A DNA stretch of 64,000 bases from assembly GCA_964371255.1 (NCBI GenBank), contig CAYJKV010000003.1, forward strand, positions 86,901-150,900, written 5' to 3'. This DNA comes from an uncultured Candidatus Saccharibacteria bacterium. Its GTDB lineage: Bacteria > Patescibacteriota > Andersenbacteria > UBA10190. Made by a program: the position numbers and the translations under genes. Shown one piece after another: positions 8,588 through 61,637 of the stretch. Position 1 is the first letter of the stretch. Every line of letters starts with the position of its first letter. The notes beneath the pieces were generated by a model. It was given only the letters and a program-made list of their open reading frames with translations, was not told the origin of the DNA and did not search any database.

Positions 8588-10823
<2,236 letters not shown>

Positions 10824-10834
10824 CTGGTCTCTCC

Positions 10835-13266: not shown

Positions 13267-13267
<1 letters not shown>
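12707..13267 (-). CDS. atpF: Fo ATP synthase subunit b
   Basis: Single N-terminal TM helix followed by a long charged coiled coil. Operon position. Confidence 0.8.
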
Positions 13268-13509
<242 letters not shown>

Positions 13510-13533
13510 TTAGTTAAATAATTAAAAATTAAT

Positions 13534-14292: not shown

Positions 14293-14294
14293 AA

Positions 14295-14549
14295 CTATAC
14301 TTTATTCAGATATTTGATTTTGCGCCAGATAGCGCCACCGGAAACTACTAATGCCACCGGCATCAGCCCAATCGTAATGATCGGTTTAGTCGCGAAAATA
14401 TTATCCAGCTTTAGGCCAATCGCTAATACCATCAGCAACGGAACGATGATAATAAATCCCACTTCGCTTGCCAGTGCCAGCACGTTCAGGTTCGGTGTTT
14501 GTGACGGTGATGACGTCTGTTCGGTTTTGTCTGTGGGCATAGTTTTCAT
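14295..14549 (-). CDS. small membrane protein at head of atp operon (AtpI/AtpZ-like)
   Basis: Two TM helices, immediately upstream of atpB. Start uncertain: TTG at 14594 or ATG at 14549. Confidence 0.4.
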   Translation of the reverse strand: MKTMPTDKTEQTSSPSQTPNLNVLALASEVGFIIIVPLLMVLAIGLKLDNIFATKPIITIGLMPVALVVSGGAIWRKIKYLNKV

Positions 14550-14704
14550 AGTAAAATTTGCTGCCAGTCTAATCGAGCAATGAATAAGGGTCAAGTATCA
14601 AAAAAATTCATTATTGACTTATAGTCATAACCATATTATCCTGTTTGGGTTGTCAGACATGGCAACCTTCAAGGCTAACCCTAACCACTACAAGGATTCA
14701 GTGT

Positions 14705-15127
14705 ATGGCGGGACATAATGTAAAAACCGTTGTTGTCTTCTGCTCCGACTTTCGTCAGAACCAACAGGTAATGGATCATTGTCAAGCAGCATATGGGGAG
14801 TTCGATACTCTATCTTTTCCGGGTGCCTGCCTGCCCTTCTTGGCCGACGATTCAAGCCAGGTAACCGGCCAGTGGCTTACTATCCTTCATAAACTGCATG
14901 GCAATCAAAAGGTAGTAATCATTGATCACCTTGATTGCGGCGCATACAAAGTAACCTACGGTCAGGACCTGGCTGGTGCTCCTCCTGAACATGAAGGTTT
15001 TTTGCACCTAAAAAATTTCGTCGCTCTTCAAGAAAAATTCGCGACCGATCCGACCCTGCGCGACTTGAAGCTAGAATTCGCTCTTTATAACATCCCTACC
15101 CAGCACCTTGAGACTGTGAAGCTATAA
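14705..15127 (+). CDS. hypothetical protein with beta-carbonic-anhydrase-like CSDxR / HxxCG motifs
   Basis: FCSDFR and IIDHLDCGAY resemble the beta-CA zinc ligand motifs. Shorter than canonical beta-CA. RBS AAGGA ahead of ATG at 14705. Confidence 0.4.
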   Translation: MAGHNVKTVVVFCSDFRQNQQVMDHCQAAYGEFDTLSFPGACLPFLADDSSQVTGQWLTILHKLHGNQKVVIIDHLDCGAYKVTYGQDLAGAPPEHEGFLHLKNFVALQEKFATDPTLRDLKLEFALYNIPTQHLETVKL

Positions 15128-15150
15128 ATTTCATCTCGAGACTGTTCGCC

Positions 15151-15177
15151 CAACCGCACCCTGCGGTTTTTTTATTA
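15151..15177 (+). terminator. Rho-independent terminator
   Basis: aaccgcaccctgcggtt hairpin followed by TTTTTTT, 25 nt after the stop of the 14705 gene. Confidence 0.7.
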
Positions 15178-15396
15178 TTTCTCCCAAATGAGTGTGGGCC
15201 CATAGGGGACCACGAATTTGGTGCGAAATAATAACCCATCCGTCTTGTGGCCCGAAGCTTTAGCGAAGGACCAAGCCCGAAGGGCGAAGGAGGGTTCGTT
15301 ACTTATGTAAATACATGATCGGCACACGAGACCTCGCCTTTTGAGCGAATTAAAAAAACCGCCGTAGCTTTCGCCGTAGCGGTGTGGACGTGCAAA

Positions 15397-16515
15397 TCAG
15401 CGAACGGCCAATGTGTCCGCCTTGTATTCAAGGTTTTTCGGGACAATCACGACTTTCTTCTCATCGCCGCGCTTCTCAATGTGTCCGCCTTGCCACGCTT
15501 TTATGCCATGGCAGTGCGCCAATTCAATCACCGTCTGAACTTGGTCTGGCGGCACATAGAGAGCGAAGCCAGCACCCATATTGAAGTTCCCATAGGCTTC
15601 TTCATCGCTGACCGGGCCGTGTCCCTGAATAAACGAGAACAGTATCTGTGGCTTCCCGGGGTTGTCGATTATGTACACGAATGGCTCCACCGCTCGCATC
15701 AGCTTCCGCCAACCATGGCCAGTGATATTGACGGTGTAGTGCAGGTCGACACAGGACAAACAGGCTTCAATCGCTTGAACGTAGATCGTCGTTGGCTGCA
15801 CCAGTGCTTCGCCGTATGTCTGCCTGCCGGAAAGAGGTGTCATGTAGCCACCAGGCAGCTTATCAGCGATGCGGCGCGCCAGCGTCAGGCCGTTAGCGTG
15901 GATGCCGGAGCTGGCGAGCAGTACGATCGCGTCACCATCCTGGATCCGAGGCATGATCAGTAGTTCTTTGGGTTTGATCATGCCAATGGCAGAGCCACTC
16001 AAGACCACGGTCTCCGACGCAATCATATCCTTCAGCGTCGGTGTTTCACCACCAGCCCAAGTGCAGCATGCCAGATCACAGCCTTCCTTCCATCCGCGCA
16101 TCAGATCACGAACGCGTCGCTCATCCGTAAACCAGTTGCCATCTCCGGCGGCCAGATGCATTGCCAATGAAATCGGCAATGCGCCGACCGTGATCATGTC
16201 GTTCACGATCGTGGCAATCGTATCGCGCGCCACATAGTCGTAATACGAGCGGCCGGTGAGCTTGTACATGGCATCAGCCACGAGATTCTTACTGCCCAAG
16301 CCTTCCTCGACATGTGCTAAGTAACAGTCCGGCATTTCGATCAGATAGGCACTTTCGCCGCGACTCCACGGCACTTCCTTGAGATCAAACTCGCGCAGGT
16401 AATGGGCAGTCTCCTGTGCTGTTTCTTGTGCCTGCCGCTTGAACGGGTCCATCAGGCTGTAGTCAACGCCAGTGCTGGCATAGGTCATTGGCTTGGTCAT
16501 GGTTTGTTGCTCCAA
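15397..16515 (-). CDS. AIR synthase-related (PurM-like) protein
   Basis: Collinear with PurM: YASTGVDY (SYKDAGVDI), EEGLGSKNL (GTDGVGTKL), NDMITVGALP (NDLVVQGAEP), WAGGETPTL (VGGETAEMP), DGDAIVLLASSGIHANGLTL ([20 protein letters not shown]). Divergent from the canonical sequence. Confidence 0.65.
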   Translation of the reverse strand: MEQQTMTKPMTYASTGVDYSLMDPFKRQAQETAQETAHYLREFDLKEVPWSRGESAYLIEMPDCYLAHVEEGLGSKNLVADAMYKLTGRSYYDYVARDTIATIVNDMITVGALPISLAMHLAAGDGNWFTDERRVRDLMRGWKEGCDLACCTWAGGETPTLKDMIASETVVLSGSAIGMIKPKELLIMPRIQDGDAIVLLASSGIHANGLTLARRIADKLPGGYMTPLSGRQTYGEALVQPTTIYVQAIEACLSCVDLHYTVNITGHGWRKLMRAVEPFVYIIDNPGKPQILFSFIQGHGPVSDEEAYGNFNMGAGFALYVPPDQVQTVIELAHCHGIKAWQGGHIEKRGDEKKVVIVPKNLEYKADTLAVR

Positions 16516-16699
16516 ATTGTGAAAGGGCTAATTTGACGCTACGAAACAATTCCGAAGCGTGCAGGGTATCATACGTTTTCGGTCCAAATATGACAATTTA
16601 CATTTGCTGAAAGCGCCTCTCGCTGGTATGACCAAATGAGGCCGCGGATCGTCCGTGAGCTATTTTCTGAACATTCCCAACTAAATATAGGGAAAAACC

Positions 16700-19600
16700 A
16701 TGATCTATCGCATGTACCGACAGATGGACAGTAGTCTGGAGCTTGGTTTCTATATCGAGACCACAAGTCAGCTGTCCCAATTGGAGCAAAGACAGCTTCT
16801 GTGGCTGGTCGCAGAAACATTCGAACCCAGCCAAACTGGAACCGAACCCCACTTGACATCACCAGATGTCGTGGAAATCGGACCAAGGATTTCAATTGAG
16901 ACTCCATTCTCGTCGAATGCCGTCTCAATCTGCCAATCCATGGGGCTGCGGCAGATTACCCGTATCGAGCGTACTCACCGCCACCTAATTTGCAATGGCC
17001 AGTCGGCGGACATCCTCCTTCAGACTCATCTTGACCTAATGACCGAGCAGCACTACCCGAACGGAATCGAGAGTTTTGACACCGGCACATTGCCTGAAGG
17101 TGTCAAAGAAATCGACCTCATGGGTCGCGGCCAAGAAGCACTCGACGATATGAACAGTGCGCTTGGTCTTGGCATGGATGCCCGGGACCTCGAGTACTAT
17201 CAATATCTTTTTACTCAGGTCCTTCACCGGAATCCGACCGATGTTGAATTGTTCCAACTGGGCAACGCCAACAGCGAGCACAGCCGGCACTGGTACTTCA
17301 AGGGCCAGATTGTCATCGATGGAACGCCCATGCCGGAGACTCTCTTTGCGATCGTTCAGCGCCCGCTGAAAAGTCTCGGCAGTGATAATCGCAGCCTCGT
17401 TGCCTTTAGGGACAACGCTGGTGTGATCAAAGGATTCGGCACGCGCTTAATCCTTCCTGTCAATCCAGGCATGCCTTCGGCAATGTGTATCTTGGCAAAG
17501 GTGGTTCATATCACCTGTACCGCGGAAACTCACAACCATCCGACTTTCGTGTCGCCATACAATGGCGCTGCCACCGGTCCGGGAGGTGAAATACGTGACG
17601 GCAGTGCCGTTGGTTGTGGAGGTATATCAGGCATCGGTGTATTTGGTCTTTTTGTTGGCAACCTCTTTATCCCCGGGTATGAAATCCCAGGAGAAATAGT
17701 GGGTTACGGCAAACCGTCCAAGTACGCCTCTCCTCTTAGAATTCTGATTGAAGGAAGCAACGGGGCTTTTGATTACGGCAACCAGATCGGCAGGGCAGTC
17801 ACTCTAGGCTTTTGCCGAACCTTCGGTCAGACAGTCGGAGGCCAGTGGCGTGAGCCACGCAAACCAATCCTCTATAGTGGTGGTGTCGGTCACTTGTTTA
17901 ACGAGCACATCATTAAAGGGACGCCTGAAGTTGGCATGCTCATCGTGCGCATTGGCGGCCCCGCTTACCCTGTCGGGGTTGGCGGAGGCTCAGCTTCAAG
18001 CATGATGCAGGGTCAGAACACCGAGGATCTCGATTTCAACTCCGTCCAGCGCGGTAACGCAGAAATGGAGAATCGGGCGAACCGGGTCATTCGAGCCTGC
18101 ATCGAAATGGGCAATCAAAATCCCATCTCAAGTATTCACGATCAAGGTGCCGGTGGGCCGAGCAATGTTCTTACGGAACTTCTTGAACCCCTCGGCGGCC
18201 AGATCAACATTCGCGGCATTGTGCTTGGCGACAAGACGATGTCCGTCCTTAAAATCTGGAGCGCTGAATTTCAAGAAGGATATGGACTCCTGATCAGGCC
18301 GGAACGGATCGAACTTTTCATGTCGGTCTGTAAACGCGAGCGTGTCAACTGCGAAGTCCTCGGTGCAATCGATGGCCGTGGAAACGTTGTCGTTGAAGAT
18401 TCTCAAAACGGGACAACACCCGTCGCACTGAACCTGGATCAGATTCTGACGAATATGCCTCAGAAAACGTTCGAGTCTACCCGAGGGACTGAAGGCCTCA
18501 AACCTTTGAACCTGCCGGATGTCACTGTCGGCGAGGCACTGCGGGCGGTGTTCAAACTTCCCAGTGTGGGTTCGAAAGGGTTCCTTGTTCACAAGGTGGA
18601 CCGAAGCGTTACTGGGCTCGTCGCGCAGCAACAATGCTGTGGCATTGCCCAGATTCCGATTGCGAATGTGAGCATTAACGCACAAAGCCATTTCGGTTTA
18701 ACCGGAGCGGCCAGTGCAGTCGGTGAACAGCCGGTGAAGATGCTCATTGATCCGCGAGCTGGAGCCAGAATGGCGGTAGCAGAAATGCTGACCAACCTGG
18801 CCTCGGCACGGATTAGTGGTATGGAAGATATTCGATGCCGTGCCAACTGGATGTGGCCTGCTAAGCTGCCTAACGAAGGCGCCCTCCTCTATGAGGCCGC
18901 AGTTGCTATGTCTGACCTCATGGTCGGGCTTGGCATTGCAGTTGATGGAGGTAAAGATAGCCTGTCAATGGCAGCGACAATTTCGGGAGAGCTCGTAAAG
19001 GCGCCTGGCAGTTTAGTGATTCTCGGGTACGCCCCCGTGCCTGACATCACGAAGAAGGTCACGCCGGATATCAAGGAGGCAGGACGAAGCGAGTTGTGGC
19101 TGATTGATCTTGGACTGGGTAAAAATCGCCTAGGCGGTTCAGCTCTAGCTCAAGCGTTCAACCAGCTCGGTGATGAGTCGCCCGATGTTGACAGCCCTAA
19201 ACTCCTCAAGAACGCGTTTCTTGCGGTGCAACAGATGATCGACGACGGGTTGATTCTGTCTCTGCATGATCGAAGCGACGGTGGTCTCATAACCGCGGTC
19301 GCAGAGATGTGTATGGCCAGTTGCTGTGGATTCAGTCTGAGCGTTCCTAACGCTGAAGAATTACTGGCTAGTTTATTTAGCGAGGAGCTCGGGTTTATTG
19401 TAGAAGTTGAACAAGGAGAAAAGATTGGTCAAATTTGTAAACTTTGCCAGTCACTCGGTGTACCGATTTACAATGTTGGCAAGACGCTGTTAAGCACTTT
19501 GTGCGAGGTACATAATGGTGCTGATCAAACATTCTGGGATAGCTCAATTACAGATCTCCGGGCGTGGTGGGAGTCTACATGTTACGAAGTCGAGAAGTTG

Positions 19601-20539
19601 CAGATGAATCCCGCGTGTGCCGAAGAAGAACATGTTGCTCGCCAGAGCCGGCTTCCCAGCATTAATGCGGCTCCATCTTATCAGCTCTCGTTTGCTCCAA
19701 TTGCAACACCTCTGGCAGTTCTGGAGGCGGACAACAAACCTCGTGTGGCGGTGCTGCGCGAGGAAGGCACGAACGGCGACCGAGAAATGCAAGCTGCCTG
19801 TGCAGCAGCCGGTTTTGCACCATGGGATGTCACTATGAGTGATCTTCTGGCAGGCAGCATCAATCTGGATATGTTCCAGGGGATCATCTTTGCTGGCGGC
19901 TTCTCCTACAAGGACGTATTCGACAGCGCTAAAGGCTGGGCCGGGACAATCCTGTTCAATGATAGGTTGAGGGAGATGTTCGACCGCTTCTACGTCCGCG
20001 AGGATATATTCTCGCTCGGCGTGTGCAACGGCTGTCAGCTGATGGCGCTACTCGGATGGGTACCGTGGCAAGGCATTGCCAGTGAGATGCAACCGAGGTT
20101 CGTTCACAACACTTCGGGTCGGTTTGAGTCCAGGTGGGTACAGGTAGAAGTTTTACCCAGCCCATCGGTGCTTCTTAACGGCCTGGAAGGATCGAAGCTC
20201 GGCATATGGGTCGCTCATGGCGAAGGCCGACTGGTTTATCCGGATCAGTCGATTGCGCAGGAGGTTTTAAAGCTTAAGCTGGCACCTCTCGTCTACCTGG
20301 ATCCATATGGTGAGCAGACGGAACTGTATCCATACAATCCGAATGGTTCGCCGCTCGGGATTACGGCTCTGTGCTCTCCAGACGGACGTCATCTTGCAAT
20401 GATGCCTCATCCAGAACGTTGTTTTCGTTGGTGGCAGTGGCCTTGGCAGCCAGCTTCATGGCAACGTCTCAACACCTCTCCATGGCTCCGGATGTTTCAG
20501 AACGCCAGGGAATGGTGCAGGGCTTACGGACTTATCTAA
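16700..20539 (+). CDS. purL: phosphoribosylformylglycinamidine synthase, large single-chain type
   Basis: 1279 aa. ETHNHPTFVSPYNGAATGPGGEIRD FGAM-synthetase core. C-terminal class-I glutamine amidotransferase (GVCNGCQLMALLGW). N-terminal repeat as in E. coli PurL. Confidence 0.9.
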   Translation: MIYRMYRQMDSSLELGFYIETTSQLSQLEQRQLLWLVAETFEPSQTGTEPHLTSPDVVEIGPRISIETPFSSNAVSICQSMGLRQITRIERTHRHLICNGQSADILLQTHLDLMTEQHYPNGIESFDTGTLPEGVKEIDLMGRGQEALDDMNSALGLGMDARDLEYYQYLFTQVLHRNPTDVELFQLGNANSEHSRHWYFKGQIVIDGTPMPETLFAIVQRPLKSLGSDNRSLVAFRDNAGVIKGFGTRLILPVNPGMPSAMCILAKVVHITCTAETHNHPTFVSPYNGAATGPGGEIRDGSAVGCGGISGIGVFGLFVGNLFIPGYEIPGEIVGYGKPSKYASPLRILIEGSNGAFDYGNQIGRAVTLGFCRTFGQTVGGQWREPRKPILYSGGVGHLFNEHIIKGTPEVGMLIVRIGGPAYPVGVGGGSASSMMQGQNTEDLDFNSVQRGNAEMENRANRVIRACIEMGNQNPISSIHDQGAGGPSNVLTELLEPLGGQINIRGIVLGDKTMSVLKIWSAEFQEGYGLLIRPERIELFMSVCKRERVNCEVLGAIDGRGNVVVEDSQNGTTPVALNLDQILTNMPQKTFESTRGTEGLKPLNLPDVTVGEALRAVFKLPSVGSKGFLVHKVDRSVTGLVAQQQCCGIAQIPIANVSINAQSHFGLTGAASAVGEQPVKMLIDPRAGARMAVAEMLTNLASARISGMEDIRCRANWMWPAKLPNEGALLYEAAVAMSDLMVGLGIAVDGGKDSLSMAATISGELVKAPGSLVILGYAPVPDITKKVTPDIKEAGRSELWLIDLGLGKNRLGGSALAQAFNQLGDESPDVDSPKLLKNAFLAVQQMIDDGLILSLHDRSDGGLITAVAEMCMASCCGFSLSVPNAEELLASLFSEELGFIVEVEQGEKIGQICKLCQSLGVPIYNVGKTLLSTLCEVHNGADQTFWDSSITDLRAWWESTCYEVEKLQMNPACAEEEHVARQSRLPSINAAPSYQLSFAPIATPLAVLEADNKPRVAVLREEGTNGDREMQAACAAAGFAPWDVTMSDLLAGSINLDMFQGIIFAGGFSYKDVFDSAKGWAGTILFNDRLREMFDRFYVREDIFSLGVCNGCQLMALLGWVPWQGIASEMQPRFVHNTSGRFESRWVQVEVLPSPSVLLNGLEGSKLGIWVAHGEGRLVYPDQSIAQEVLKLKLAPLVYLDPYGEQTELYPYNPNGSPLGITALCSPDGRHLAMMPHPERCFRWWQWPWQPASWQRLNTSPWLRMFQNAREWCRAYGLI

Positions 20540-35371: not shown

Positions 35372-36079
35372 TTAGCTGGGTTGCGGCGTGAGTTTGGTAA
35401 TATTCGCCAGCTCTCCTGTCACTAAAATTCGTTGCTTGGTTGACCATAAAGGCCAACAGGCCATCAGCGTCACGGTCGGTACCGCATTCTCTGATTCTAT
35501 CAAAACAGTGCTGTCCGGTGTGATGATCCTGGAATTAATAATTCGATAGGTATATCTGGTATTGTTGTAGTCGAGATGGATCAAGTTATTATCAGTTAAT
35601 TCATTGACCCGGGAAAACGCGAAGCGGTACTTACCCTTCCATGGTTCACCAGTGCTGTGTGCTGCTACAAAAGTGTTACCTGGTCGGCCAGGCAAAATGC
35701 CATTAGGATAAAGGGCCGCGCCTTCGGCCAAAGTGCTTAAAATTTCCTGATCATTTAATGTCTGGCTCATGACTAATGGGACAGACACGCCAATCGATGG
35801 AATACGTATCCAGTCACCCTGCTCAAAATTTTCTATTGGTATCAGCTCGGGAAACATTTGCTTTAGTGGCGTTTTATCCACCAGGGCTACTTCTACCCGT
35901 TCTTCCACCCAAGGTAAAGGAGGGTAGTAAACCCCCGGTTCGTTCATACTATTCACAATTACCGGCCAAGCCATGTACCACACCGATACACATCCAAACA
36001 TCAACGCTGCTCCGGATATCAATACTAACGCCAGTCCTCCTACTCGGCGTAAGTCCTTGCTAGTAAATCTATTTTGCAT
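35372..36079 (-). CDS. sortase-family transpeptidase
   Basis: N-terminal TM. Catalytic TLMACWP (TLxTC) motif and conserved His region (FVAAHSTG). Confidence 0.7.
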   Translation of the reverse strand: MQNRFTSKDLRRVGGLALVLISGAALMFGCVSVWYMAWPVIVNSMNEPGVYYPPLPWVEERVEVALVDKTPLKQMFPELIPIENFEQGDWIRIPSIGVSVPLVMSQTLNDQEILSTLAEGAALYPNGILPGRPGNTFVAAHSTGEPWKGKYRFAFSRVNELTDNNLIHLDYNNTRYTYRIINSRIITPDSTVLIESENAVPTVTLMACWPLWSTKQRILVTGELANITKLTPQPS

Positions 36080-36192
36080 AAGGCATTATTATACATCAAC
36101 TATCAAATATGTCAAATATATCCATTCTAATATACACAAAAATCCGCTCATTAGACGGATTTTTGTTGTTTTTACAAAATCAGATCTAAACC

Positions 36193-36372
36193 TTAGACAT
36201 CCTGTGGCTTCACAGTCGCGCGCTTATTTTTCTGCGCTCTGCTGGCTGCGGCATCTAATAGACCTTTCACTTGATCGTTTAAAGCCCCGATTAATTCACC
36301 AGACATTTTCACGTTTTTGCCCTTGAGATACCCTCTGACTTTGCTGGCTACTACTAAAACTTCACCTTCCAT
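36193..36372 (-). CDS. histone-fold protein (HBb / DUF1931-like bacterial histone, 59 aa)
   Basis: MEGEVLVVASKVRGYLKGKNVKMSGELIGALNDQVKGLLDAAASRAQKNKRATVKPQDV aligns with the archaeal HMfB alpha1-L1-alpha2-L2 pattern (RVS..A...L......A...A...GRKTVK..DI). AAGGAGG RBS at -8. Confidence 0.55.
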   Translation of the reverse strand: MEGEVLVVASKVRGYLKGKNVKMSGELIGALNDQVKGLLDAAASRAQKNKRATVKPQDV

Positions 36373-36529
36373 ATAAAACACCTCCTTTGAAATAACTTTG
36401 TCGATCTTCCTGCATCGCACAGATTGTACCACTGATATATGAAAACTCTCAAATTAGGCTATCCACAAGCCTGGACAACCCATCGTTATTATTTCGTCGC
36501 TTCCACTCGCGTCATCGCAGCGACATCTT

Positions 36530-38014
36530 TCAAACGAGCAACAATATCACTGCCAGCAAGATTACCAAAGAAGCATGAGTTATCATTTTTGGATGCTGGA
36601 TACGAATTTTTATCATCACCGCTAATAACAGTAAAACGACAATAACCATCGCGATGGCAATAATTAGTCGCCTGGCCATAGTATTGATGCGAGCTGGCCC
36701 GGCAGCTTGTCCATCAACGCTACGGTCAGTGAAAATTGAAGGCTGCAAATCGACCATCCCCGCCACGCTGGTATTGCCAGACTCATCTAAAACTTTTACC
36801 TCGACCGTACCTGTCGGTAGCGGAAACACTAATGATTCCGGCCCCGGCATACTCGTTTCTGCCACAACCTGATGATCTGCTTCCACTTGCAGTTTTACGT
36901 ACGCTCCGGATGGTAAATTCAGCCTGGCTTCCGGCGTGTCTGTCTTCGGTGAAATGATAAACATTATTCCTGCATCATCAATCTGCGGGCCGGTTGTGTC
37001 CTTATCCAATTCTTGAGGCAAGGTGATGACGCTTCGTTGTCCTGCATCATTTTCCGCCCATGCGGTTAATTGCAATTTACCATCCTCAAATTCACGTAAA
37101 TCAATTTCTTGCTGCGCGAAGCCCAAATCACTGATATTCAATGAGGTCACTGCCACGTTATTTATCACTATGTGAACCTTCGACCCAGCCTCCGCTGTTG
37201 CTTGGATCCTTAGGCTGTTTTGCACCGTTGGTTTCTCGGCTAACAAAGTAACAACCGGTTCCGTGGGCACAGTCGCCGGCGCCGGCTCAGCTATTGGCGC
37301 TAAGGTCGGTTCGGCCGGGACGGGGGAGGCAACAGGCGCAACTGCTTCTTCTGCTACCTGTGAACGAGCAGATAATGCTGATGCTGCTGATAATTGAGAC
37401 GGCCTGACAGCCCCGATGGGCAAACCAAACATATGCACAACCACCGTCGACGTTCCGCCTTGATATTCTCCCGTTAACACGGCGATGCCAGTTTCGACGT
37501 AATCCGGCTGTAAAATATTGTCCCGATGCGAAGGGCTGGCCATCCAGGCATCAACCACATCTTCCGCTTGTATAAAATCAATCGCCAAATTCTCTCCGGC
37601 GACTGTGTAAACATAAGTATTTCGCTGCATCCAGAACCAGGGTGTTACGCCGGTCGGAGATATATGTGCAAAATAATCGTTATTAATCATATCCTGCGCT
37701 TTCTCCGTCGCCGCCTTAGTTAGTTTGTCATTCAGAGTGAGTGCTCCTAAACCATTATTCACCCTTTCTGCGTTAGTCAGCTGTAATATTCGGGCATTAG
37801 TAATCGTGGACAACTCCGCCGTGGAGGGGAGCAGTAATACCAACGCCAAAGCTAACAGTTTAGCCGTCAAAATTAATCCTGATACGGCCAACAAAGACCG
37901 CCGGCGCAGCGCCAACGGCCGATAATTATTTTCTGGCCGCGGAATAATACATACTTGCGCGCCATGTAAAGCTTGTGCGGTGACTCCCATGATTAAATTA
38001 TGAAGCAAGAACAT
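36530..38014 (-). CDS. secreted CAP/SCP (YkwD-like) domain protein with C-terminal TM anchor
   Basis: NAERVNNGLGALTLNDKL...YFAHISP...GENLA...HRDNIL CAP-domain motifs. C-terminal hydrophobic anchor. Confidence 0.6.
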   Translation of the reverse strand: MFLLHNLIMGVTAQALHGAQVCIIPRPENNYRPLALRRRSLLAVSGLILTAKLLALALVLLLPSTAELSTITNARILQLTNAERVNNGLGALTLNDKLTKAATEKAQDMINNDYFAHISPTGVTPWFWMQRNTYVYTVAGENLAIDFIQAEDVVDAWMASPSHRDNILQPDYVETGIAVLTGEYQGGTSTVVVHMFGLPIGAVRPSQLSAASALSARSQVAEEAVAPVASPVPAEPTLAPIAEPAPATVPTEPVVTLLAEKPTVQNSLRIQATAEAGSKVHIVINNVAVTSLNISDLGFAQQEIDLREFEDGKLQLTAWAENDAGQRSVITLPQELDKDTTGPQIDDAGIMFIISPKTDTPEARLNLPSGAYVKLQVEADHQVVAETSMPGPESLVFPLPTGTVEVKVLDESGNTSVAGMVDLQPSIFTDRSVDGQAAGPARINTMARRLIIAIAMVIVVLLLLAVMIKIRIQHPKMITHASLVILLAVILLLV

Positions 38015-49760: not shown

Positions 49761-50783
49761 ATGCTTTATCGTCCACATGTTCCGGTGTTAACCGACGTCA
49801 TCATCGACTTATTTCGACCTGCCTCTCAGGATTCATTGCTTGATGCGACCCTCGGGACCGGCGGCCACACCAAAGCCTATTTAATGGCCAGCGAGCCCGG
49901 TGGCACAGTTGTTGGTCTTGACTCTGATCCCAGAGCCATCGCTGCGGCGCAGCACTATTTATTCAATTACCTTGATCGCGTTAAGTTCATCAATACTAAC
50001 TTTGCGTTTCTTAAGGATTCAATCGTGGGGGGAGGAATTCTTACGAGCGCGGGCGGCAACGTTATTAGTACCGGCCTCAAGCCAGTACTAAAAGGTCAAG
50101 CTGCCATCGCTCCCAATAATACTTCCAACAGTTTGTTCACTCACATTTTATTCGATCTTGGCCTTGGTTCTCATCAGCTGGATGATCCTGCCGCGGGCTT
50201 TTCGTTTCAAAGCGACGGTCCTTTAAATATGAAATTTGGTGCGGACAGTCCGTTGCCTGACTCCTCGTTTCAAGCCGTTAATTACGCGACGCAGCGCTTA
50301 GGACATCATCCCAACGCGTACGAATTAATCAGCCAGTTATCTGTGCCGGAATTAACTCTCCTCCTTCATACTCTGGGCGAGGAAAGATATGCCGGACGGA
50401 TTGCGCAGGCGATTAAACGCCGGATCCCAGCCACCACCCACGAGCTGGCGGCCACTGTCCAGCAGGCAGTCCCTGCCAGCTACGAACATGGCCGTATCAA
50501 TCCTGCGACCAGGACCTTCCAGGCATTACGCTTGGCCGTCAATCGTGAATTAGAAGCTTTGGCCGTCGCGCTGCCTCAGGCCGCCGACTTGCTCCAAGCC
50601 AATGGCACGATTGCGGTGATCAGCTTTCATAGTTTAGAAGATAGGATTATTAAGCAATTCTTTCGTCAAAGTGAACTAAGCGTGGTCACAAAAAAGCCGC
50701 TGACGGCCACGCCTGAAGAAATTAAGCGCAACCCTCGCGCCCGTACGGCTAAACTAAGAGCCGCCCGCAAAACGCCGGGCTAG
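49761..50783 (+). CDS. rsmH: 16S rRNA (cytosine1402-N4)-methyltransferase
   Basis: HVPVLTDVIIDLF...DATLGTGGH SAM-binding N-terminus. Confidence 0.85.
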   Translation: MLYRPHVPVLTDVIIDLFRPASQDSLLDATLGTGGHTKAYLMASEPGGTVVGLDSDPRAIAAAQHYLFNYLDRVKFINTNFAFLKDSIVGGGILTSAGGNVISTGLKPVLKGQAAIAPNNTSNSLFTHILFDLGLGSHQLDDPAAGFSFQSDGPLNMKFGADSPLPDSSFQAVNYATQRLGHHPNAYELISQLSVPELTLLLHTLGEERYAGRIAQAIKRRIPATTHELAATVQQAVPASYEHGRINPATRTFQALRLAVNRELEALAVALPQAADLLQANGTIAVISFHSLEDRIIKQFFRQSELSVVTKKPLTATPEEIKRNPRARTAKLRAARKTPG

Positions 50784-50820
50784 CCAACATCATCAATTAA
50801 CAACTAACAAAAACCAACAC

Positions 50821-51243
50821 ATGACATCAATAAGCAACCAATTCGTCCGACCGCGCCGCCAGTTGAACCAGGCTGCCTGGCGTCAACCGCAGCATTGTCA
50901 AATCCGTCATTTCTCCGCCATTGCTAGTTGGCAAAGCGGCAGTATCAATTCAACCACTGTCTCCTTGGTCTTCGGTTTATTGATTATTATCAGTATTTCT
51001 TGCCTGGGCTTCTTCTATCTCGGACAAGTCCTAAACACCGCGTCACAGGGGTCTGATATCCAGCAGTTGGAAGAAAAAATTGTTGAGCTTAAAGAAAAAC
51101 AACGTCAGGTTGAACTGGAAGGCGCTCAGTTACGCTCCATTGATAATATTGAAAATCGCGTCCATGACTTAAACCTGGTTGCCACTAGCAAAGTAACGTT
51201 TCTTAATCCGGCTGTGGATAAAGTCGCTGCTTTAAATCGATAG
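50821..51243 (+). CDS. ftsL: FtsL-like cell-division protein (TM plus coiled coil)
   Basis: Position between rsmH and ftsI. Single TM followed by a coiled coil (LEEKIVELKEKQRQVELEGAQL). Confidence 0.5.
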   Translation: MTSISNQFVRPRRQLNQAAWRQPQHCQIRHFSAIASWQSGSINSTTVSLVFGLLIIISISCLGFFYLGQVLNTASQGSDIQQLEEKIVELKEKQRQVELEGAQLRSIDNIENRVHDLNLVATSKVTFLNPAVDKVAALNR

Positions 51244-51345
51244 GCTACCGCGCACCTTAAACTTTTTCGCGGTTGGATTCCTTTAAGTTACTTAACAATA
51301 ATTGCTTCATGCCTGACAGTTAGGCATACTTGTTGGAAAATTCTC

Positions 51346-53232
51346 ATGCTCGCAATCTCACAAAGGCTTTGGCTATTGAATGCAATCTGCTTATTCATAC
51401 TAGCTATTTTAATTGTCCGCTTAATTGACCTGCAGGTGATTAGGAGCGGATATTTCACCGCTATCGCTACCGGTCAACGCCAAAGAGCGGCCGAACTTGC
51501 CCCTAGTCGCGGCACCATTTATTTGCAGGAACACAATAGCGGCGAATTATTCCCGGTCGCCGTCAATAACAAGAGCTGGATTGCGTATGCTGTCCCGCGC
51601 GATATGGCCGACCCATTGCAGGTAGCCGAAGAATTGGCACCGGCCTTACTCCAATTTCGCGAGCGCCAGCAACAACAGGTTTCATCGATCCTGACGGATA
51701 CGGGCCAGGTTTCTAACCCAGCGCCTGATGTGCCTGATCAGCCTAGTTACGATGATCGCTTGGCCACTCTGCGGGATGAGCTTTATCGCAAGTTTAATCA
51801 GCACGCTGATCCCTACGAACCATTTTTAAAATTCTACGAATATTTAGATGAGGAATTCTATAACTATTTGTCCGAACATGATTTCGCCGGTATCAGATTG
51901 GAGGAAACTACCTCCCGTATTTATCCGGAAAAATCATTGGCGGCTCATGCCCTGGGCTATGTTGGCTGGCTAGATGATAAAAAGATTGGCCGCTATGGTA
52001 TTGAAGGCAACTTCGAATCGTCACTGGCTGGCGATCTCGGTTTCTTTAGTATGGAACACGATACCGCTGGGCAATACATCGGTGTCGGGTCCCGGCAGTT
52101 TGAACCGGCCACGGATGGGGAAAGCATTGTTCTCACCCTGGACCGTGTGATTCAGTCGGCGATAGAGGACGAGCTTAAAGATGGAGTAACCCGTTACGGG
52201 GCTGAACGCGGCAGCGTCATTGTTATGAATCCTCGCACCGGCGCTATTTTAGGCATGGCTACCTATCCCACCTATGATCCTAATTATTATTACGCTATCA
52301 ACGACGCGAAAGTCCAGCTTAATCCGATCATCTCTGACATCTTTGAGCCGGGCTCCGTGCTCAAGCCCGTTGTTATGTCAGCGGCTATTGAGGAAGGATT
52401 AGTCACGCCGCAAACAACTTTCAACGATACCGGACCTGTCAAAGTTGCGAAATATACTATTAATACTTTTGATGGCCAACATCACGGCGTTCAAACCATG
52501 ACGCAGGTACTGGAAAAATCCAACAACATTGGTATGGTCTGGGTTGGACAACAGCTGGGCGCTGAAACAATGTACGACTATTTACGGCGCTTTGGTTTAG
52601 GAGAAAAAACCGGTGTTGAATTAGAAGGCGAAACGCAAAATACCCTTAAAGACCCAGACCAATGGAACGTCGCGACGGTGGCTACCTCTTCTTTCGGCCA
52701 GGGAGTCGCCCTCACCCCGCTGCAAATATTGAACGCCATCAATGTTATCGCCAACGACGGTACGCTCATGCAACCCTATATCGTCTCGCGTCGTCAGCCG
52801 AGCCAGGGTGAAGCGGAAGAAACGATACCGGCTCAAGTGCGCCACGTCATTTCTCCCGCGACTGCCGGTGATGTCTCCGCCATGATGGTCAGCGTCATCG
52901 AAAACGGTGTCGCCACGTTAGCTCGGGTACCCGGCTATTATCTGGCCGGCAAAACCGGTACCGCTCAAGTCCCTGATGAGACAGGCGCCTATTCGCCGGA
53001 TCGTAAAATCATTTCCTTTGTCGGTTTTGGGCCGATCGATCATCCACAATTTTCCATTATGATCAAACTAGATAATCCATCCGGGCTTTCATTCGCCTCC
53101 GGTACCGCCGCCCCGATGTTTAGGCACATCGCGGAAAAAATCATTAACTATTTACAAATCCCGCCGGATTATGACCCCACCAAGCAACCGCCCAAGTTTG
53201 AAGTCGGGGACAATAATCAAGTTGGTGCCTAG
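51346..53232 (+). CDS. ftsI: penicillin-binding protein (FtsI/PBP2-type transpeptidase)
   Basis: N-terminal TM. Transpeptidase motifs SVLK (SxxK), SNN (SxN), KTGTA (KTG). Confidence 0.85.
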   Translation: MLAISQRLWLLNAICLFILAILIVRLIDLQVIRSGYFTAIATGQRQRAAELAPSRGTIYLQEHNSGELFPVAVNNKSWIAYAVPRDMADPLQVAEELAPALLQFRERQQQQVSSILTDTGQVSNPAPDVPDQPSYDDRLATLRDELYRKFNQHADPYEPFLKFYEYLDEEFYNYLSEHDFAGIRLEETTSRIYPEKSLAAHALGYVGWLDDKKIGRYGIEGNFESSLAGDLGFFSMEHDTAGQYIGVGSRQFEPATDGESIVLTLDRVIQSAIEDELKDGVTRYGAERGSVIVMNPRTGAILGMATYPTYDPNYYYAINDAKVQLNPIISDIFEPGSVLKPVVMSAAIEEGLVTPQTTFNDTGPVKVAKYTINTFDGQHHGVQTMTQVLEKSNNIGMVWVGQQLGAETMYDYLRRFGLGEKTGVELEGETQNTLKDPDQWNVATVATSSFGQGVALTPLQILNAINVIANDGTLMQPYIVSRRQPSQGEAEETIPAQVRHVISPATAGDVSAMMVSVIENGVATLARVPGYYLAGKTGTAQVPDETGAYSPDRKIISFVGFGPIDHPQFSIMIKLDNPSGLSFASGTAAPMFRHIAEKIINYLQIPPDYDPTKQPPKFEVGDNNQVGA

Positions 53233-53300
53233 ACCTTGTGGGTCGATTTTGAAAGCCATTTTTATACTGACGCTTTTCGAGATAAACTAATCGCACAGCT

Positions 53301-54542
53301 ATGCTAAAAAAAATTGGCCAGACCATCCTATGGCTGCGCGCTAAGGATTATTTACAGCGTTATCACCTGCCATTGATTGGTGTTGCTGGGAGCACGGACA
53401 GAGGTGTCGCGACGGCAGCCATCGCCGCTGTCTTTTCCACCACCTATCGCGTCCGCCATTCTCCCTTGGGAGCCAACACGCGCGCCGGTATCGCCTCCTC
53501 TATTCTGGGCATTGCCGCTACCCGCGCCAGGCAACCATGGTATCAGTCATTACCCCGCAGTAAGGCTAAGGAGCTTACCGATTATGAACCCGATGTCATC
53601 GTTTTAGAATTGGGCGCCAGCCGTCCGGGCGATATTGATTATGCAGCCACTCACCTGCCTTTTCAGGGAGCAGTGGTCACCAACGTCCATTCCTCCCACC
53701 TGGACCTCTTCGCTAGTCAAGAGTTAGTAGCACACGAACTGGCGTCCCTGGTCGTCTCTACAGCCCGCAGTGGTTTTGTCGTGCTCAATGTCGATGATCC
53801 GTTAGTGCGTGATATGCAGACCAAGAGCCAGGCTCGCGTCATTACTTATGGGACATCAGCTGACGCGACTGTTCGCCTACTGCACACCAGATCTCGTGGT
53901 CGCATTGGCGTTGCCTGCGCTGTTAACATTGCCGGACATATTTATGAACTTCATTTCCCCAACATCGTCTCTGAATATCAAATTCCTTCCCTTATCAGTT
54001 CGTTAGCGGTCGCTTATGCCATGGGTATCAACTTATCTAAAGCTATCAACGCCATCCAGCCCCTCCAACCAACACCTGGCCATATGAGATTCCTGGCCGG
54101 GCACAATCATGCGGTTTTGCTTGATGACAGCTATGATGCGTCCCCGGAGAGCACCCACACGGCCCTGCAAACGCTCCGCTCATATCCGGCGACAAGAAAA
54201 ATTGCTATTCTTGGCGATGTTTTGGATCTGGGAACGCAAACCATTACTTCCCATCAGCAAATTGGACATACGGTCGCGGGAGTTGCCAATATCTTTGTCG
54301 CGGTCGGCAGCCACATGCGACACGCCGGGGCAGCGGCTCTCCGTCACGGCTCCGGCAACCAGGGACAGAACAGTCTGGATATTCACTATTTTTCCTCCAG
54401 TCGCGATGTCGGCAAGTGGTTGCGCGATTTTCTGCATCCAGACGATGTTGTACTGATTAAGGGCTCTCGAGCTATGCGCATGGAAGAAGTCACCCGTCGC
54501 CTCCTAAGCAAGCCCGCCGACGAATCACAATTAGTACCATAA
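53301..54542 (+). CDS. murF: MurF-like Mur ligase lacking the N-terminal domain and carrying a degenerate P-loop
   Basis: DDSYDASPESTHTALQTL and C-terminal DVVLIKGSRAMRMEEV are MurF hallmarks. The P-loop position reads GVAGSTDRGVAT instead of GxTGTNGKTT. Confidence 0.65.
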   Translation: MLKKIGQTILWLRAKDYLQRYHLPLIGVAGSTDRGVATAAIAAVFSTTYRVRHSPLGANTRAGIASSILGIAATRARQPWYQSLPRSKAKELTDYEPDVIVLELGASRPGDIDYAATHLPFQGAVVTNVHSSHLDLFASQELVAHELASLVVSTARSGFVVLNVDDPLVRDMQTKSQARVITYGTSADATVRLLHTRSRGRIGVACAVNIAGHIYELHFPNIVSEYQIPSLISSLAVAYAMGINLSKAINAIQPLQPTPGHMRFLAGHNHAVLLDDSYDASPESTHTALQTLRSYPATRKIAILGDVLDLGTQTITSHQQIGHTVAGVANIFVAVGSHMRHAGAAALRHGSGNQGQNSLDIHYFSSSRDVGKWLRDFLHPDDVVLIKGSRAMRMEEVTRRLLSKPADESQLVP

Positions 54543-54658
54543 AACCTCTCGTCAGTGGCCGCAGATCAAAGACCGTTAACCTTTCCATCAAATTCTGATT
54601 TTCTAACTTCTGTCTTGTTATTTTACGCTTTTCGCTTTACTCTTTACATTTAATTAAT

Positions 54659-54730
54659 GGCCTCTTCGTCTAGCGGCTAGGACATCAGGTTCTCATCCTG
54701 GAAACAGGGGTTCGATTCCCCTAGAGGCTA
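54659..54730 (+). tRNA. tRNA-Glu (CTC)
   Basis: Manual fold: acceptor GGCCTCT/AGAGGCT, D-arm GTCT-AGCGGCTAG-GACA, anticodon stem CAGGT/ATCCTG region with loop containing CTC, T-arm AGGGG-TTCGATT-CCCCT. Confidence 0.75.
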
Positions 54731-55317
54731 CAAGCATTAATGAATACACACCGTCATTTGATGGTGTGTATTCATTATGGCCGAAGGCTATTTGGGGAAT
54801 CGAAGGGTATTCTAAAAACGTAAACTGCTTTACGTTTTTAGAAACCCGGGCTTCGGGGGAGTAAAATTGCCTCGAGCGCAGCGAGTGCAATTTTGCGGGG
54901 GAGAAGGATTCCCCTAGAGGCTACATCAAAAATACCTCCGCTTGCGGGGGTATTTTATGATGTTTTCTTAAGAATGAATCGAACGGTATTTCGAGAAGAT
55001 GAACTACTTTATCTTCGAGAAAACCGTGGCTGCGAAGCCTGCCTGCCGGCAGGCAGGGAGGAGTGAGTAATGTACCGTAGGTACGAAGCGAACGACGGAG
55101 GAGCAGGATTCCCCTAGAGGCTGCCAGCCTAAACAATAGACCGCTCTCATTTGAGAGTGGTTTATTGTTATGCACACAGTGCATCCGGGGAATCGAAGGG
55201 TATTCCAAAAACGTAAATAGTTTTACGTTTTTAGAAACCCAGGCTCCGCAGGAGGAGCGCAGCATCGAACGAATGTGAGCGCTGCGCGACGGGTGAAGAG
55301 AATTCCCCTAGAGGCTA
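54715..55317 (+). repeat. tandem array: four copies of the tRNA-Glu 3' terminus (ATTCCCCTAGAGGCTA) at 54715, 54908, 55108, 55302, separated by three hairpin-rich units of about 177-184 bp
   Basis: Direct sequence identity of the 16-19-nt repeats. Units 1 and 3 are about 70% identical. All three units share GAATCGAAsGGTATT - hairpin - AAACC with compensatory changes in the hairpin. Confidence 0.8.
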
Positions 55318-55438
55318 CTAGACAATAGACCGCTCTCAGTACTGTCTGCCCGCATCACAAACACCATTAAAGATCCACCTTTGCGCATCTTTTGCTCCTG
55401 CGTTTCACCAAATCTGCTTTTCATAATAGAATTAGAAG

Positions 55439-56254
55439 ATGAGAAGCAAAGTAGGCAAGAGGGGATTCACTTTAATTGAAGTCTTGGTTGTTATAGCAAT
55501 TATAGGTATTCTCGCGATCATTGTTTTAATAACTATCAGCACGCTGCGGGAAAAAGCCAGGTTGTCCAACTTGCTTAATCATCAAGGGCAAGTCGGTCAT
55601 CAGTTGGGTGCATATGCTTCGGGCATCTGGGAGATGGATGAAGGTTCAGGCCTGTCTGTAATGAACGGTTCGGAGAATCAATTCGCTGGTGCGCTAAGTG
55701 ATGTTACTTGGGTTGAAGATACGCCGGAAGGGAAAGGATACTCCTTAGAATTCAACGGTATGGACGGGGAAGTTATCCTGTCGCCAAGCGATCAACTGTT
55801 AAGCAATGCCAACGAACGATGGACAATTACTGCCTGGTTCAAACCATATTCAATCTCCTCCTCCCTAATTTTTGACCGGATCATTACGATCGGTAGAAAG
55901 AGTACTCCAGGTACTGCCGTTTCCTTACTGCTAGGTGATAGTAATAAACTCATTGTCCGGTATTACAGCGTAGCTGGTGTTGATGGTAACGAAAATTATT
56001 TCCCGGTAGGAGAAGTTTCTTTAAACCAATGGCATTTTGCCAGACTGTCTTATGACAATGGCGTTTTTGAGGCGTGGCTGGATAACGAGCGAGTGATTGT
56101 GGATGATCCGGCTGACTTTCCGACAACTGAAGATTTATATGTCATCGACCGGGGTACGTATAGTGCCATTCTTGGCTCGTGGTCGCCTGTCGATAACCAC
56201 GATCAGCACTTCCATGGCCTCATCGACGAGGTGCAAATTTATACGAATTATTGA
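55439..56254 (+). CDS. type IV pilin-like protein with LamG (concanavalin-like) C-terminal domain
   Basis: Prepilin leader and cleavage site KRG-FTLIEVLVVIAIIGILA (Glu at +5). C-terminal WTITAWFKP...LamG-like. Confidence 0.7.
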   Translation: MRSKVGKRGFTLIEVLVVIAIIGILAIIVLITISTLREKARLSNLLNHQGQVGHQLGAYASGIWEMDEGSGLSVMNGSENQFAGALSDVTWVEDTPEGKGYSLEFNGMDGEVILSPSDQLLSNANERWTITAWFKPYSISSSLIFDRIITIGRKSTPGTAVSLLLGDSNKLIVRYYSVAGVDGNENYFPVGEVSLNQWHFARLSYDNGVFEAWLDNERVIVDDPADFPTTEDLYVIDRGTYSAILGSWSPVDNHDQHFHGLIDEVQIYTNY

Positions 56255-56596
56255 AGACCTAAATTTCGCAATTTAGAAGAGCGTTCCCCCTGTTTGTATT
56301 TTATGTAGCGCTCACTACTAATAAATAATAGTCATACCACCATCTGTCGAATCGGGTATTCTCGTCAATTTTAATCCCATTATCCTCGCGCCAGTTACTT
56401 ACTGGACTGGCCTCGCGATCATTAACCCGCTGATTGGTCATCACTACGTCATGCCCTTGATTAGCCGCGGCTTTCCAGTGTGGCTGGGGAGAGATATCTT
56501 GAAAAATTCATAGACCCCCCGATCAAACCAATTGACTTATACTCCTAATAAATTTGAGCCATTTTTGCCCGTGCTGCCAAAGAAATATATTTCACA

Positions 56597-56630
56597 CAAA
56601 AAGAGGGCGCTAAATAGCGCCCTCTTTTTC
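56597..56630. terminator. bidirectional Rho-independent terminator
   Basis: AAAA-AGAGGGCGC-taaata-GCGCCCTCT-TTTTC. Confidence 0.75.
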
Positions 56631-56644
56631 TGTGTTACAAACAA

Positions 56645-56911
56645 TTAGCCTCTGTGCTTTCCGAAACAGTCCCGGCAGTATACCGGTCTGTCACCTGTTG
56701 GCTGGAACGGAACTTTTGCCGATCCTCCACAATCCGCACAGGTGGCATCGTACATCTGTCGATCTCCACCGCGTGAGCCGTGTTGTTTCTTGAAACAGTC
56801 GTTACAGTATACCGGTCGGTCACCCGACGGTTGGAAAGGAACTTTTGCGTCCTTGCCACACTCGGCACACTTTACGTCAAACATTTGACGTTCCTCGTTA
56901 AAATCTCGCAT
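56645..56911 (-). CDS. tandem CxxC-x17-CxxC zinc-ribbon protein
   Basis: Two repeats of F/YDxxCAxCGxxAKVPFQPxGDRPVYCxDCF with exactly 17 residues between the CxxC pairs. GGAGGAG RBS. Confidence 0.65.
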   Translation of the reverse strand: MRDFNEERQMFDVKCAECGKDAKVPFQPSGDRPVYCNDCFKKQHGSRGGDRQMYDATCADCGGSAKVPFQPTGDRPVYCRDCFGKHRG

Positions 56912-57145
56912 TGATAATCTCCTCCTTTCGTGTTAGTCCCTGACGGGACCCTAAATCGAGGTCTTCGCACTCCTTTAAGTCGACGCTCGATTTAACACAA
57001 AAGGTCTCTCTACACGTCTCCTGCGAGGAACGTTTCCCTCAGTCCAAATCTTGCCATATATAACTCATTATTGTCAACTCTATTGTGATGAATAGTAATT
57101 CTCCCTAAACTTAAGTAATTAATTAACATTTATCACCTTTTTTCT

Positions 57146-57763
57146 ATGAAATTTACTTTGCCGAAACTGACCTTCGCGTATGACGACCTGGAACCTTATT
57201 TTGATGCCCGCACGATGGAGTTACACCACACGAAACATCACCAGGCATATACCGACAAACTTAATGACGCCGTCTCCAAGCATCCGGAATTGCCGGACCA
57301 ATCAGGCGAGGAATTATTAATGAATTTAAGCGCTTTACCTGCCGATATCAGATCCGTGGTGCAGAATCAGGGCGGAGGCTACGTTAATCACAACTTTTTT
57401 TGGGACATATTATCTCCAGAAAAAAAGAGTATTCCCGACTCTGACCTCAAAAAGGAAATCGTCGCCAAATTTGGCAGCTTTGACCGTTTTACAGCTGACT
57501 TTACCGCGCAAGCGGCTGCTCATTTCGGCAGCGGTTGGTCTTGGCTGGTGGTTGATGGAGACGATCAATTACAGCTTATTACTACGATGAATCAGGACAG
57601 TCCGCTAAGCTTAGGCCATGCACCAATCTTGGCTTTGGATCTTTGGGAACACGCCTATTATCTTAAATACCAAAATCGGCGGCCGGAATATATCACTGCT
57701 TGGTGGTCGATTGTTAATTGGCCGTCGGTAATCGCCAAGTACAATCAAGCGCTTAAACACTGA
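57146..57763 (+). CDS. sodA: Fe/Mn superoxide dismutase
   Basis: [25 protein letters not shown]... and [18 protein letters not shown] Fe/Mn-SOD signatures. Confidence 0.9.
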   Translation: [205 protein letters not shown]

Positions 57764-57826
57764 CTTGGATTGTCTTACCTATCCGTAAAGATTAGTCATA
57801 GACTGTATAAAATGCTCACCTAAAAG

Positions 57827-59416: not shown

Positions 59417-59512
59417 TTTTTGCCGTGTCGGTGATAATCTGCGGCGTCCTCGACCTGGCTGTGCCAAAGTTACTGTTGCCTATTCATGTAAATTTCCATA
59501 TTCTCATAAGCT

Positions 59513-60364: not shown

Positions 60365-60400
60365 TTACTCTTCCGACCTTCCCACCCACCCCCTGTTTCT

Positions 60401-61495: not shown

Positions 61496-61637
61496 TCAGA
61501 CAGACCAATTAAATTTATTCGGCTATGTTTGTCCGCCCATTTTGTACCATAAAATCAATTGACATACAGCTTGTCATGTATTAACCTGCATATCTGGCAA
61601 CAAAAGGATCGTACCTTCAGCATACGGAGTTCACGTC

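Follow-up and report, generated by a model that had tools for sequence, protein, structure and literature searches.

Throughout the text, the window means the whole stretch of DNA that was analysed, 64,000 nucleotides long. It has a G+C content of 48.4% and matches the ENA metagenome contig ERZ13693046 NODE_190 (173 kb, ~77x coverage) at 100% identity over 20 kb. A short histone gene sits in it, flanked on the same strand by a sortase gene and by a gene for a CAP-domain membrane protein of 494 aa. The features of this region are listed below in the direction of transcription:

36459-36467, minus strand: motif TGTGGATAG, some 7 nt upstream of the -35 box, conserved as TGTGGAWAG
36423-36452, minus strand: putative sigma-70-type promoter, with a -35 box TTGAGA (36452-36447), an 18-nt spacer and an extended -10 box TGgTACAAT (36431-36423)
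36379-36388, minus strand: Shine-Dalgarno sequence AAAGGAGGTG, a 9-nt perfect match with a 7-nt spacer to the ATG
36193-36372, minus strand: coding sequence of a 59-aa histone, very probably of the alpha3-truncated face-to-face (FtF) type, as indicated by translation, the match to the histone HLp, AlphaFold2, Foldseek, dN/dS and gene calls
36134-36169, minus strand: intrinsic terminator made of an A-tract, a bulged hairpin AAAAAUCCGUC-UAAU-GAGCGGAUUUUU and a U-run, lying 24 nt past the stop codon
36088-36115, minus strand: perfect sigma-70 consensus promoter (TTGACA-16-TATAAT), ending 9 nt before the sortase ATG
35372-36079, minus strand: sortase ORF, with its ATG at 36079 and no Shine-Dalgarno sequence

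Translation of the reverse complement from 36372 to 36193 gave the 59-aa product MEGEVLVVASKVRGYLKGKNVKMSGELIGALNDQVKGLLDAAASRAQKNKRATVKPQDV, followed by a TAA stop codon (36195-36193), while the plus strand of the same interval yielded nothing but stops. The first-pass annotation of this DNA had both the coordinates and the product right and omitted to say that the gene lies on the minus strand. It had also described the ribosome binding site as perfect, which was borne out: AAAGGAGGTG precedes the ATG (36372-36370) at the spacing given above, and AAGGAGGTGT is invariant, together with the ATG, across eight orthologous upstream regions. A longer ORF of 79 aa, opening with a GTG at 36432, was ruled out by where the Shine-Dalgarno sequence lies, the lengths of the homologues and the gene calls. 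The homologue list and alignment showed that related proteins are mostly 58-62 aa long and start at the same methionine, and independent gene callers chose 59 aa in six metagenome contigs. An in-frame "KEV" is found upstream in all orthologues because the conserved Shine-Dalgarno sequence gets translated. The protein has a mass of 6.3 kDa, a pI of 9.9 and a net charge of +5.

In a consensus scan the promoter of the histone gene showed 10 of 12 consensus matches plus the TG. The positions TG-TA-A-T of the extended -10 box are invariant across the orthologues and the -35 box is largely conserved, and TGGTACAAT is unique in the window. We infer that this sigma-70-like site drives the histone gene. 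The motif TGTGGAWAG is conserved upstream of the gene in loci L007, L008, L011, L014 and L016. The window holds a single copy, with 1.19 expected by chance, and the motif was rejected as a general element of the genome. It is a candidate regulator site, UP-like site or site of autoregulation, and it is uncertain whether it forms part of the histone unit. A second similar copy, ATGTGGAWAA, was seen in the 5'UTR of L008, L009 and L016, where the window has the diverged sequence TGCAGGAAG.

Because of its bulge the terminator escaped the consensus scan; RNA folding revealed it and gave the hairpin a free energy of -16.1 kcal/mol (z = -3.4). A strong hairpin with a U-run was present at the same place in all 14 orthologous loci examined, with unrelated sequences, as would be expected if the terminator is functional. 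With its own conserved promoter-like site and intrinsic terminator the histone gene therefore looks monocistronic; the arrangement looks like a self-contained unit whose translation signals are maximal, as one would expect of a small protein made in large amounts. The position of the sortase promoter, 9 nt from an ATG that has no Shine-Dalgarno sequence, suggests that the sortase mRNA is leaderless. The sortase start chosen by the gene callers gives a product of 209 aa, which cuts off the predicted membrane anchor.

The block of CAP, histone and sortase genes covers positions 35372-38014 of the window on the minus strand, and was compared with loci L007-L020, L030, L046 and L063. The gene order YceG<-ManC<- / CAP->histone->sortase was found in 15/15 loci of the CPR clade and was absent from all other loci. 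Elsewhere the window carries, at 8588-20539 and 49761-63187, a complete F-type ATP synthase operon, PurL, PurM, RmuC and LexA, as well as the dcw genes MraZ, RsmH, PBP and Mur ligase and an Fe/Mn superoxide dismutase, a repertoire that is comparatively rich for a CPR genome. No SMC, HU or histone-modifying genes were annotated near the histone gene in the 64-kb window. Searches of the window by tblastn with HupA, IhfA, Fis and Dps of E. coli and HBsu of B. subtilis returned nothing significant, and the same queries against 86 loci, each a small part of its genome, returned one weak Fis-like match in an Acidobacteriota locus.

The histone gene is under strong purifying selection. Comparison with the orthologue in Candidatus Andersenbacteria RIFCSPHIGHO2_02_FULL_46_16 (L007) gave dN = 0.056, dS = 0.82 and dN/dS = 0.07; at greater divergence the synonymous sites of the orthologues have become saturated, yet 63-78% amino-acid identity is kept. 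Between the window and L007 the histone is 90% identical, above every neighbouring gene (63-87%), and outside the ManC-YceG region the only long nucleotide match is made up of the histone gene, its promoter and its terminator. The 59-aa protein has 88 close homologues. A profile of its clade, built from the alignment of 46 sequences (A1), matched 3163 proteins at E<=1e-3. At the same cut-off it matched 1261 representatives of a library that had been clustered at 50% identity, of which 130 reached E<=1e-10. A chance reading frame is excluded by the dN/dS of 0.07 and the hundreds of homologues. The gene is real and strongly constrained, with a promoter-like site, a perfect Shine-Dalgarno sequence and a terminator of its own.

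Bacterial histones have been recognised only recently. To our knowledge, just two have been characterised experimentally: HBb of Bdellovibrio, a DNA-bending dimer, and HLp of Leptospira perolatii, a DNA-wrapping tetramer. In a phmmer search of the PDB with the single sequence, HLp (9QT0) was matched at E = 2.3e-11, without gaps over residues 2-58, and the E value reached 3.2e-19 with the clade profile. The archaeal histone HTkC of Thermococcus kodakarensis (9F2C) was matched at 5e-3 with the single sequence and at 5.3e-7 with the profile; the corresponding values for HBb (8CMP/8FVX) were about 0.09 and 3.4e-6. One eukaryotic H2B, absent from the single-sequence matches, appeared at 0.057 with the profile. 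No HMf chain was found at E<=1 in the clade-profile search of solved structures, and the likeness to archaeal HMf histones drawn in the first-pass annotation holds at the level of the fold but not at that of the profile. The likeness it had pointed out between the N-terminus of the protein and that of HBb (AEVLVVTSKVKK) is real, as the phmmer search confirmed.

The AlphaFold2 model (mean pLDDT 80.7) shows a helix at residues 9-18, a long helix at 25-48 and a one-turn helix at 56-58, with loops between them. Helix alpha2 thus has 24 residues and alpha3 is a 3-residue turn, and the chain ends at residue 59. When the model was compared with the PDB by Foldseek, the top match was HLp (TM 0.86/0.90, rmsd 1.2 Å, 56 columns). 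HBb (TM 0.87-0.88, rmsd 1.1 Å), HTkC (TM 0.84-0.85, rmsd 1.3 Å) and then eukaryotic H3, H4 and CENP-A followed, so that the best structural matches were all histones. The model bears out the histone fold proposed from the sequence, and the description as a bacterial singlet mini-protein of the short-alpha3 kind is supported by sequence, profile and predicted structure alike. The statement that alpha3 is lacking needs a correction: the helix is strongly shortened, but one turn is left, and it is truncated rather than absent.

Scans of the single 59-aa sequence against Pfam and NCBIfam gave no histone match, because no dedicated model captures the alpha3-truncated FtF-like family. Among the clade members only sub-threshold Pfam matches were obtained, to PF00808, PF09123, CENP-X, Histone and CENP-S. 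PF00808 was seen in 13 of the 46 members (best E = 0.0084), and PF09123 had no match to the query histone at E<=10. In the profile searches that the annotation had proposed, a histone-fold match was obtained with HLp, HTkC and HBb, and PF00808 and DUF1931 (PF09123) never reach threshold. Neither a lack of histone-fold matches nor a non-histone structure, which it had named as evidence against its reading, was observed. Relatives of the protein are annotated by JGI as "histone H3/H4". The archaeal nucleosomal type (HMf/PF00808), with a full alpha3 of ~10 residues, was rejected on the truncated alpha3 and the sub-threshold PF00808 matches.

The alpha3-truncated histones and their subgroups were defined by Schwab et al. 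(2024, Nat Commun; PMC11390915) by an alpha3 of 3-4 residues and an alpha2 that is 4-5 residues shorter than in nucleosomal histones. The HMM signature of the FtF subgroup consists of R48, N52, R54, T56 and D61, R48 and N52 making the dimer-dimer contacts in a torus-shaped tetramer, while R48 and N52 are missing from "bacterial dimers" such as HBb, which carry RKT (PMC11390915). These five positions correspond to R45, N49, R51, T53 and D58 of the present protein, all of them invariant in the 46 sequences of A1, and the pattern R-x3-N-x-R-x-T-x4-D is common to 80/80 related loci. The RxTxxxxD motif reads R51-A-T53-V-K-P-Q-D58, with R51, T53 and D58 invariant. The conserved Arg-Thr pair that the first-pass annotation had proposed to look for is therefore present as R51-x-T53, with D58 as clamp partner.

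HLp was solved by Hu et al. (Nat Commun 2025; PMC12701072; PDB 9QT0, 9QT1 and 9QT2) and forms a stable tetramer that is held by R49, N53 and R55, has a clamp between R55 and D62 and wraps ~60 bp of DNA. In the ungapped alignment residue i of the present protein corresponds to residue i+4 of HLp, and R49, N53, R55 and the clamp are all conserved in it. Six of the nine DNA contacts of HLp (A13, S14, K15, K17, K21, T27, G29, T56 and T57) are identical (A9, S10, K11, K17, G25 and T53); HLp K17 is conservatively replaced by R13, and T27 and T56 are changed to M23 and A52. The dimer-core residues V12, L16, L31, V35, L38, A43, V59, S24 and V54 are conserved or conservatively replaced. Differences are found at peripheral positions of the HLp tetramer interface, where S52, T61 and F63 have become K48, Q57 and V59. 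Among the solvent-exposed lysines of alpha1 in FtF histones (HMM positions 12, 14, 16 and 20), K11 (HMM 14) and K17 (HMM 20) are conserved, and the most conserved one, HMM K16, corresponds to the invariant R13, so that the charge is kept at this position but not the identity of the residue.

In an unbootstrapped NJ tree of 55 columns the CPR sequences formed one group among the bacterial FtF histones, HLp fell in an assemblage neighbouring it, and HBb lay outside. The signature residues and the closeness to HLp are the reasons why the protein was filed as an FtF-type alpha3 histone and not as an HBb-type one, and we regard its membership of the alpha3-truncated FtF family as very likely. The earlier label "HBb/DUF1931-like" was correct as to the histone fold, but the nearest relatives and the signature are those of FtF histones (HLp and HTkC), and the protein is no DUF1931 pseudodimer.

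The distribution of the family was scanned with one genome per GTDB species. Matches of at least 61% identity came from Candidatus Andersenbacteria or from MAGs with a generic CPR or unclassified "bacterium" label, with one exception; the Andersenbacteria orthologues are 61-90% identical. Two of the contigs in this tier are 698,565 bp and 575,969 bp long. The exception is a bin labelled Planctomycetota (L015), 71% identical and without the synteny of the CPR clade. The tier from 46 to 61% identity consisted mostly of Planctomycetota (Phycisphaerae, Sedimentisphaerales and Brocadiia/Scalindua), with one Falkowbacteria genome and scattered bins. A Sedimentisphaerales MAG (JBEKGR010000002.1) carries two paralogous FtF histone genes ~7 kb apart (L034 and L036).

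The main bacterial hosts of FtF histones are Spirochaetota, Planctomycetota, Bdellovibrionota and Myxococcota (PMC11390915, PMC12701072). The main text of these two papers makes no mention of Patescibacteria or CPR, and Patescibacteria, Andersenbacteria and the UniRef entry A0A2M6WZT5 were not found in the searchable part of their supplementary tables. None of the papers in the library searched connects histones with Patescibacteria, Parcubacteria or CPR. Fold, signature and likely mechanism have already been described, and what is new is a member from a lineage to which the literature has not drawn attention.

We consider it likely, from the comparisons above, that the gene encodes an FtF histone of Candidatus Andersenbacteria (CPR/Patescibacteria) that is an orthologue-level relative of HLp. 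Two chains would pair through an antiparallel alpha2 "handshake", held by V12, L16, L31, V35, L38, A43, V59 and S24/V54. R45, N49, R51 and the C-terminal turn would next link two such dimers face-to-face into a closed, torus-shaped homotetramer, in which the R51-D58 clamp would shape loop L2. About 60 bp of DNA may be wrapped non-specifically around the basic rim of the tetramer, contacted by A9-S10-K11 at the paired ends of the helices, by R13 and K17, by K22-M23-S24-G25 of loop L1 and by T53 of loop L2, and the L1/L2 beta-bridge would take part in the wrapping. We place the oligomeric form on the side of a DNA-wrapping tetramer, because the interface residues are conserved, and hold it to be fairly likely. 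With its small size and positive charge the protein might act as an abundant nucleoid-organising protein; its DNA binding, abundance and nucleoid role are inferred from homologues that are ~43% identical. We speculate that K22 in loop L1 makes up for the missing basic tail.

An alternative is that the protein stays dimeric in the manner of HBb and bends DNA sharply, or coats it end-on, without forming a wrapping tetramer. Its EVLVV-SKV N-terminal segment is almost identical to that of HBb, the predicted monomer fits HBb no less well than HLp, and the changes to K48, Q57 and V59 affect several side chains of the HLp tetramer interface. The clade profile, however, scores HBb 13 orders of magnitude worse than HLp, and the two residues whose absence defines the bacterial dimers (HMM R48 and N52) are present and invariant, where HBb has S and D. 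The RKT motif of those dimers reads R-A-T, and the unbootstrapped tree leaves HBb outside the group of the CPR clade and HLp. We therefore regard a dimeric, DNA-bending protein as improbable. The label "DUF1931" raises another alternative, a strict DUF1931 pseudodimer without DNA-binding residues, or else a chance ORF. The label is attached to the 78%-identical relative A0A2M6WZT5 ("DUF1931 domain-containing protein") and to the PDB molecule name of HLp, and PF09123 gives weak matches in 9 of the 46 clade members, with a best E of 0.0013. Every one of these matches is under the gathering score and PF00808 is matched by more members. The protein is a single 59-aa fold and not a ~150-aa doublet like the DUF1931 pseudodimers of the Aq_328 and TTHA1013 type, which cluster separately from FtF histones (PMC12701072), and the conserved DNA-binding residues of RxTxxxxD and ASK count against a strict DUF1931 protein. 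The label is an artefact of automatic annotation, and we give this alternative almost no credence.

The neighbourhood leads to a third reading, in which the histone fold belongs to a specialised DNA- or protein-binding factor of low abundance, tied to the envelope genes for CAP and sortase. The three genes are kept in order on a single strand in all the CPR-clade loci, while the neighbours have diverged to 45-87%, and a conserved motif flanks the histone promoter. Schwab et al. caution that prokaryotic histone-fold proteins are not all genome organisers (PMC11390915). On the other hand, the gene looks monocistronic, the DNA-contact residues of HLp are conserved, and Planctomycetota relatives with the same signature lie in unrelated contexts; outside the CPR clade neither a CAP nor a sortase gene was detected beside the histone. 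Where a clade is compact, synteny may be mere inheritance, and it is so regarded here. We think an envelope-linked factor very unlikely; the tight clade-wide synteny finds no explanation in a general chromatin role.

Returning to the FtF histone, its conservation across an entire class-level clade of CPR adds reduced genomes to the hosts known for such proteins. Reduced genomes have few nucleoid proteins, and one abundant histone could therefore dominate their chromatin. As a rather doubtful extension, the Andersenbacteria chromosome might be organised mainly by a tail-less FtF tetramer, as in Leptospira, perhaps instead of HU; the gene may be shared with Planctomycetota-like bacteria or have been transferred from them, K22 may replace the tail, and the TGTGGAWA motifs flanking the promoter may regulate the gene. 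If this were true, Andersenbacteria, an ultra-small CPR lineage, would be the first group of CPR whose chromatin is built on histones. The CPR FtF histone itself is an incremental advance. Its tail-less form offers a natural comparison for the role of the basic N-terminal tails in other FtF histones.

The clade profile also retrieved tandem doublets of the FtF-like alpha3 fold, ~119-128 aa long, from metagenomes (P0133, P0137, P0138, P0139 and P0141). P0133 scored 2.4e-28, nearly as well as the CPR singlets, and doublets of this type look like pseudodimeric versions of FtF histones. Two further histone-fold doublets, P0140 and P0143, have a hydrophobic, signal-peptide-like N-terminus (e.g. MRHLAISLALVLFASATSFAAGA...), which is odd for a DNA-binding protein. 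In P0213 (986 aa) profile positions 4-36 were matched seven times through the repeat ATDLRAYLQKSDIEV...; this repeat-driven match, confined to the alpha1/L1 region, is probably spurious and the protein no histone.

Among the known systems, the protein is most like HLp; the ungapped alignment of the two spans 57 residues, with 43% identity. Both are single-fold proteins, small and basic, with the same helix lengths, one-turn alpha3, ASK motif, L2 threonine, RD clamp and R49/N53/R55 residues, and in both the true start codon was identified by where the Shine-Dalgarno sequence lies. They differ in host (Spirochaetota versus CPR Andersenbacteria), in the N-terminus, which has 7 disordered residues in HLp while the CPR protein is nearly tail-less with an acidic MEGE start, in loop L1 (FMTSG in HLp, VKMSG here) and in the interface positions S52, T61 and F63, here K, Q and V. 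The genomic context of HLp is SMC/MAP/DUF350, versus CAP/sortase here.

HTkC, an archaeal FtF histone, shares the alpha3-truncated fold, the family profile, the "KRAQ" with which alpha2 ends, and the R-x-T motif. It is 33% identical, has a 2-residue insertion in loop L1 and an E at the position equivalent to N52, where the CPR protein has N, and occurs in an archaeon alongside nucleosomal histones. HBb (Bd0055 of Bdellovibrio bacteriovorus; 8CMP, 8FVX and 9EZZ) has in common with the CPR protein the EVLVV-SKVK segment, the monomer fold (TM 0.87) and the truncated alpha3. It is unlike it in having S and D at the positions of R45 and N49, RKT in place of RAT and a far weaker profile score, and in being strictly dimeric and DNA-bending.

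The nearest relatives outside the CPR are the FtF histones of the Planctomycetota MAGs (Phycisphaerae, Sedimentisphaerales and Brocadiia/Scalindua; 46-61% identity), which have an identical C-terminus, ...R-x3-NKR-[AS]-TVKPQD[LV]. Their gene neighbourhoods are different, and most of them, like most other bacterial relatives, have lysine-rich N-terminal tails (e.g. MAKKKAKKAKKPAE...), unlike the members of the CPR clade. In the CPR proteins 4-8 residues precede the LVV motif, beginning with acidic sequences such as MEGE, MADD and MNGETGE, and loop L1 reads V-K-M-S-G, in which K22, M23 and S24 are invariant in A1.
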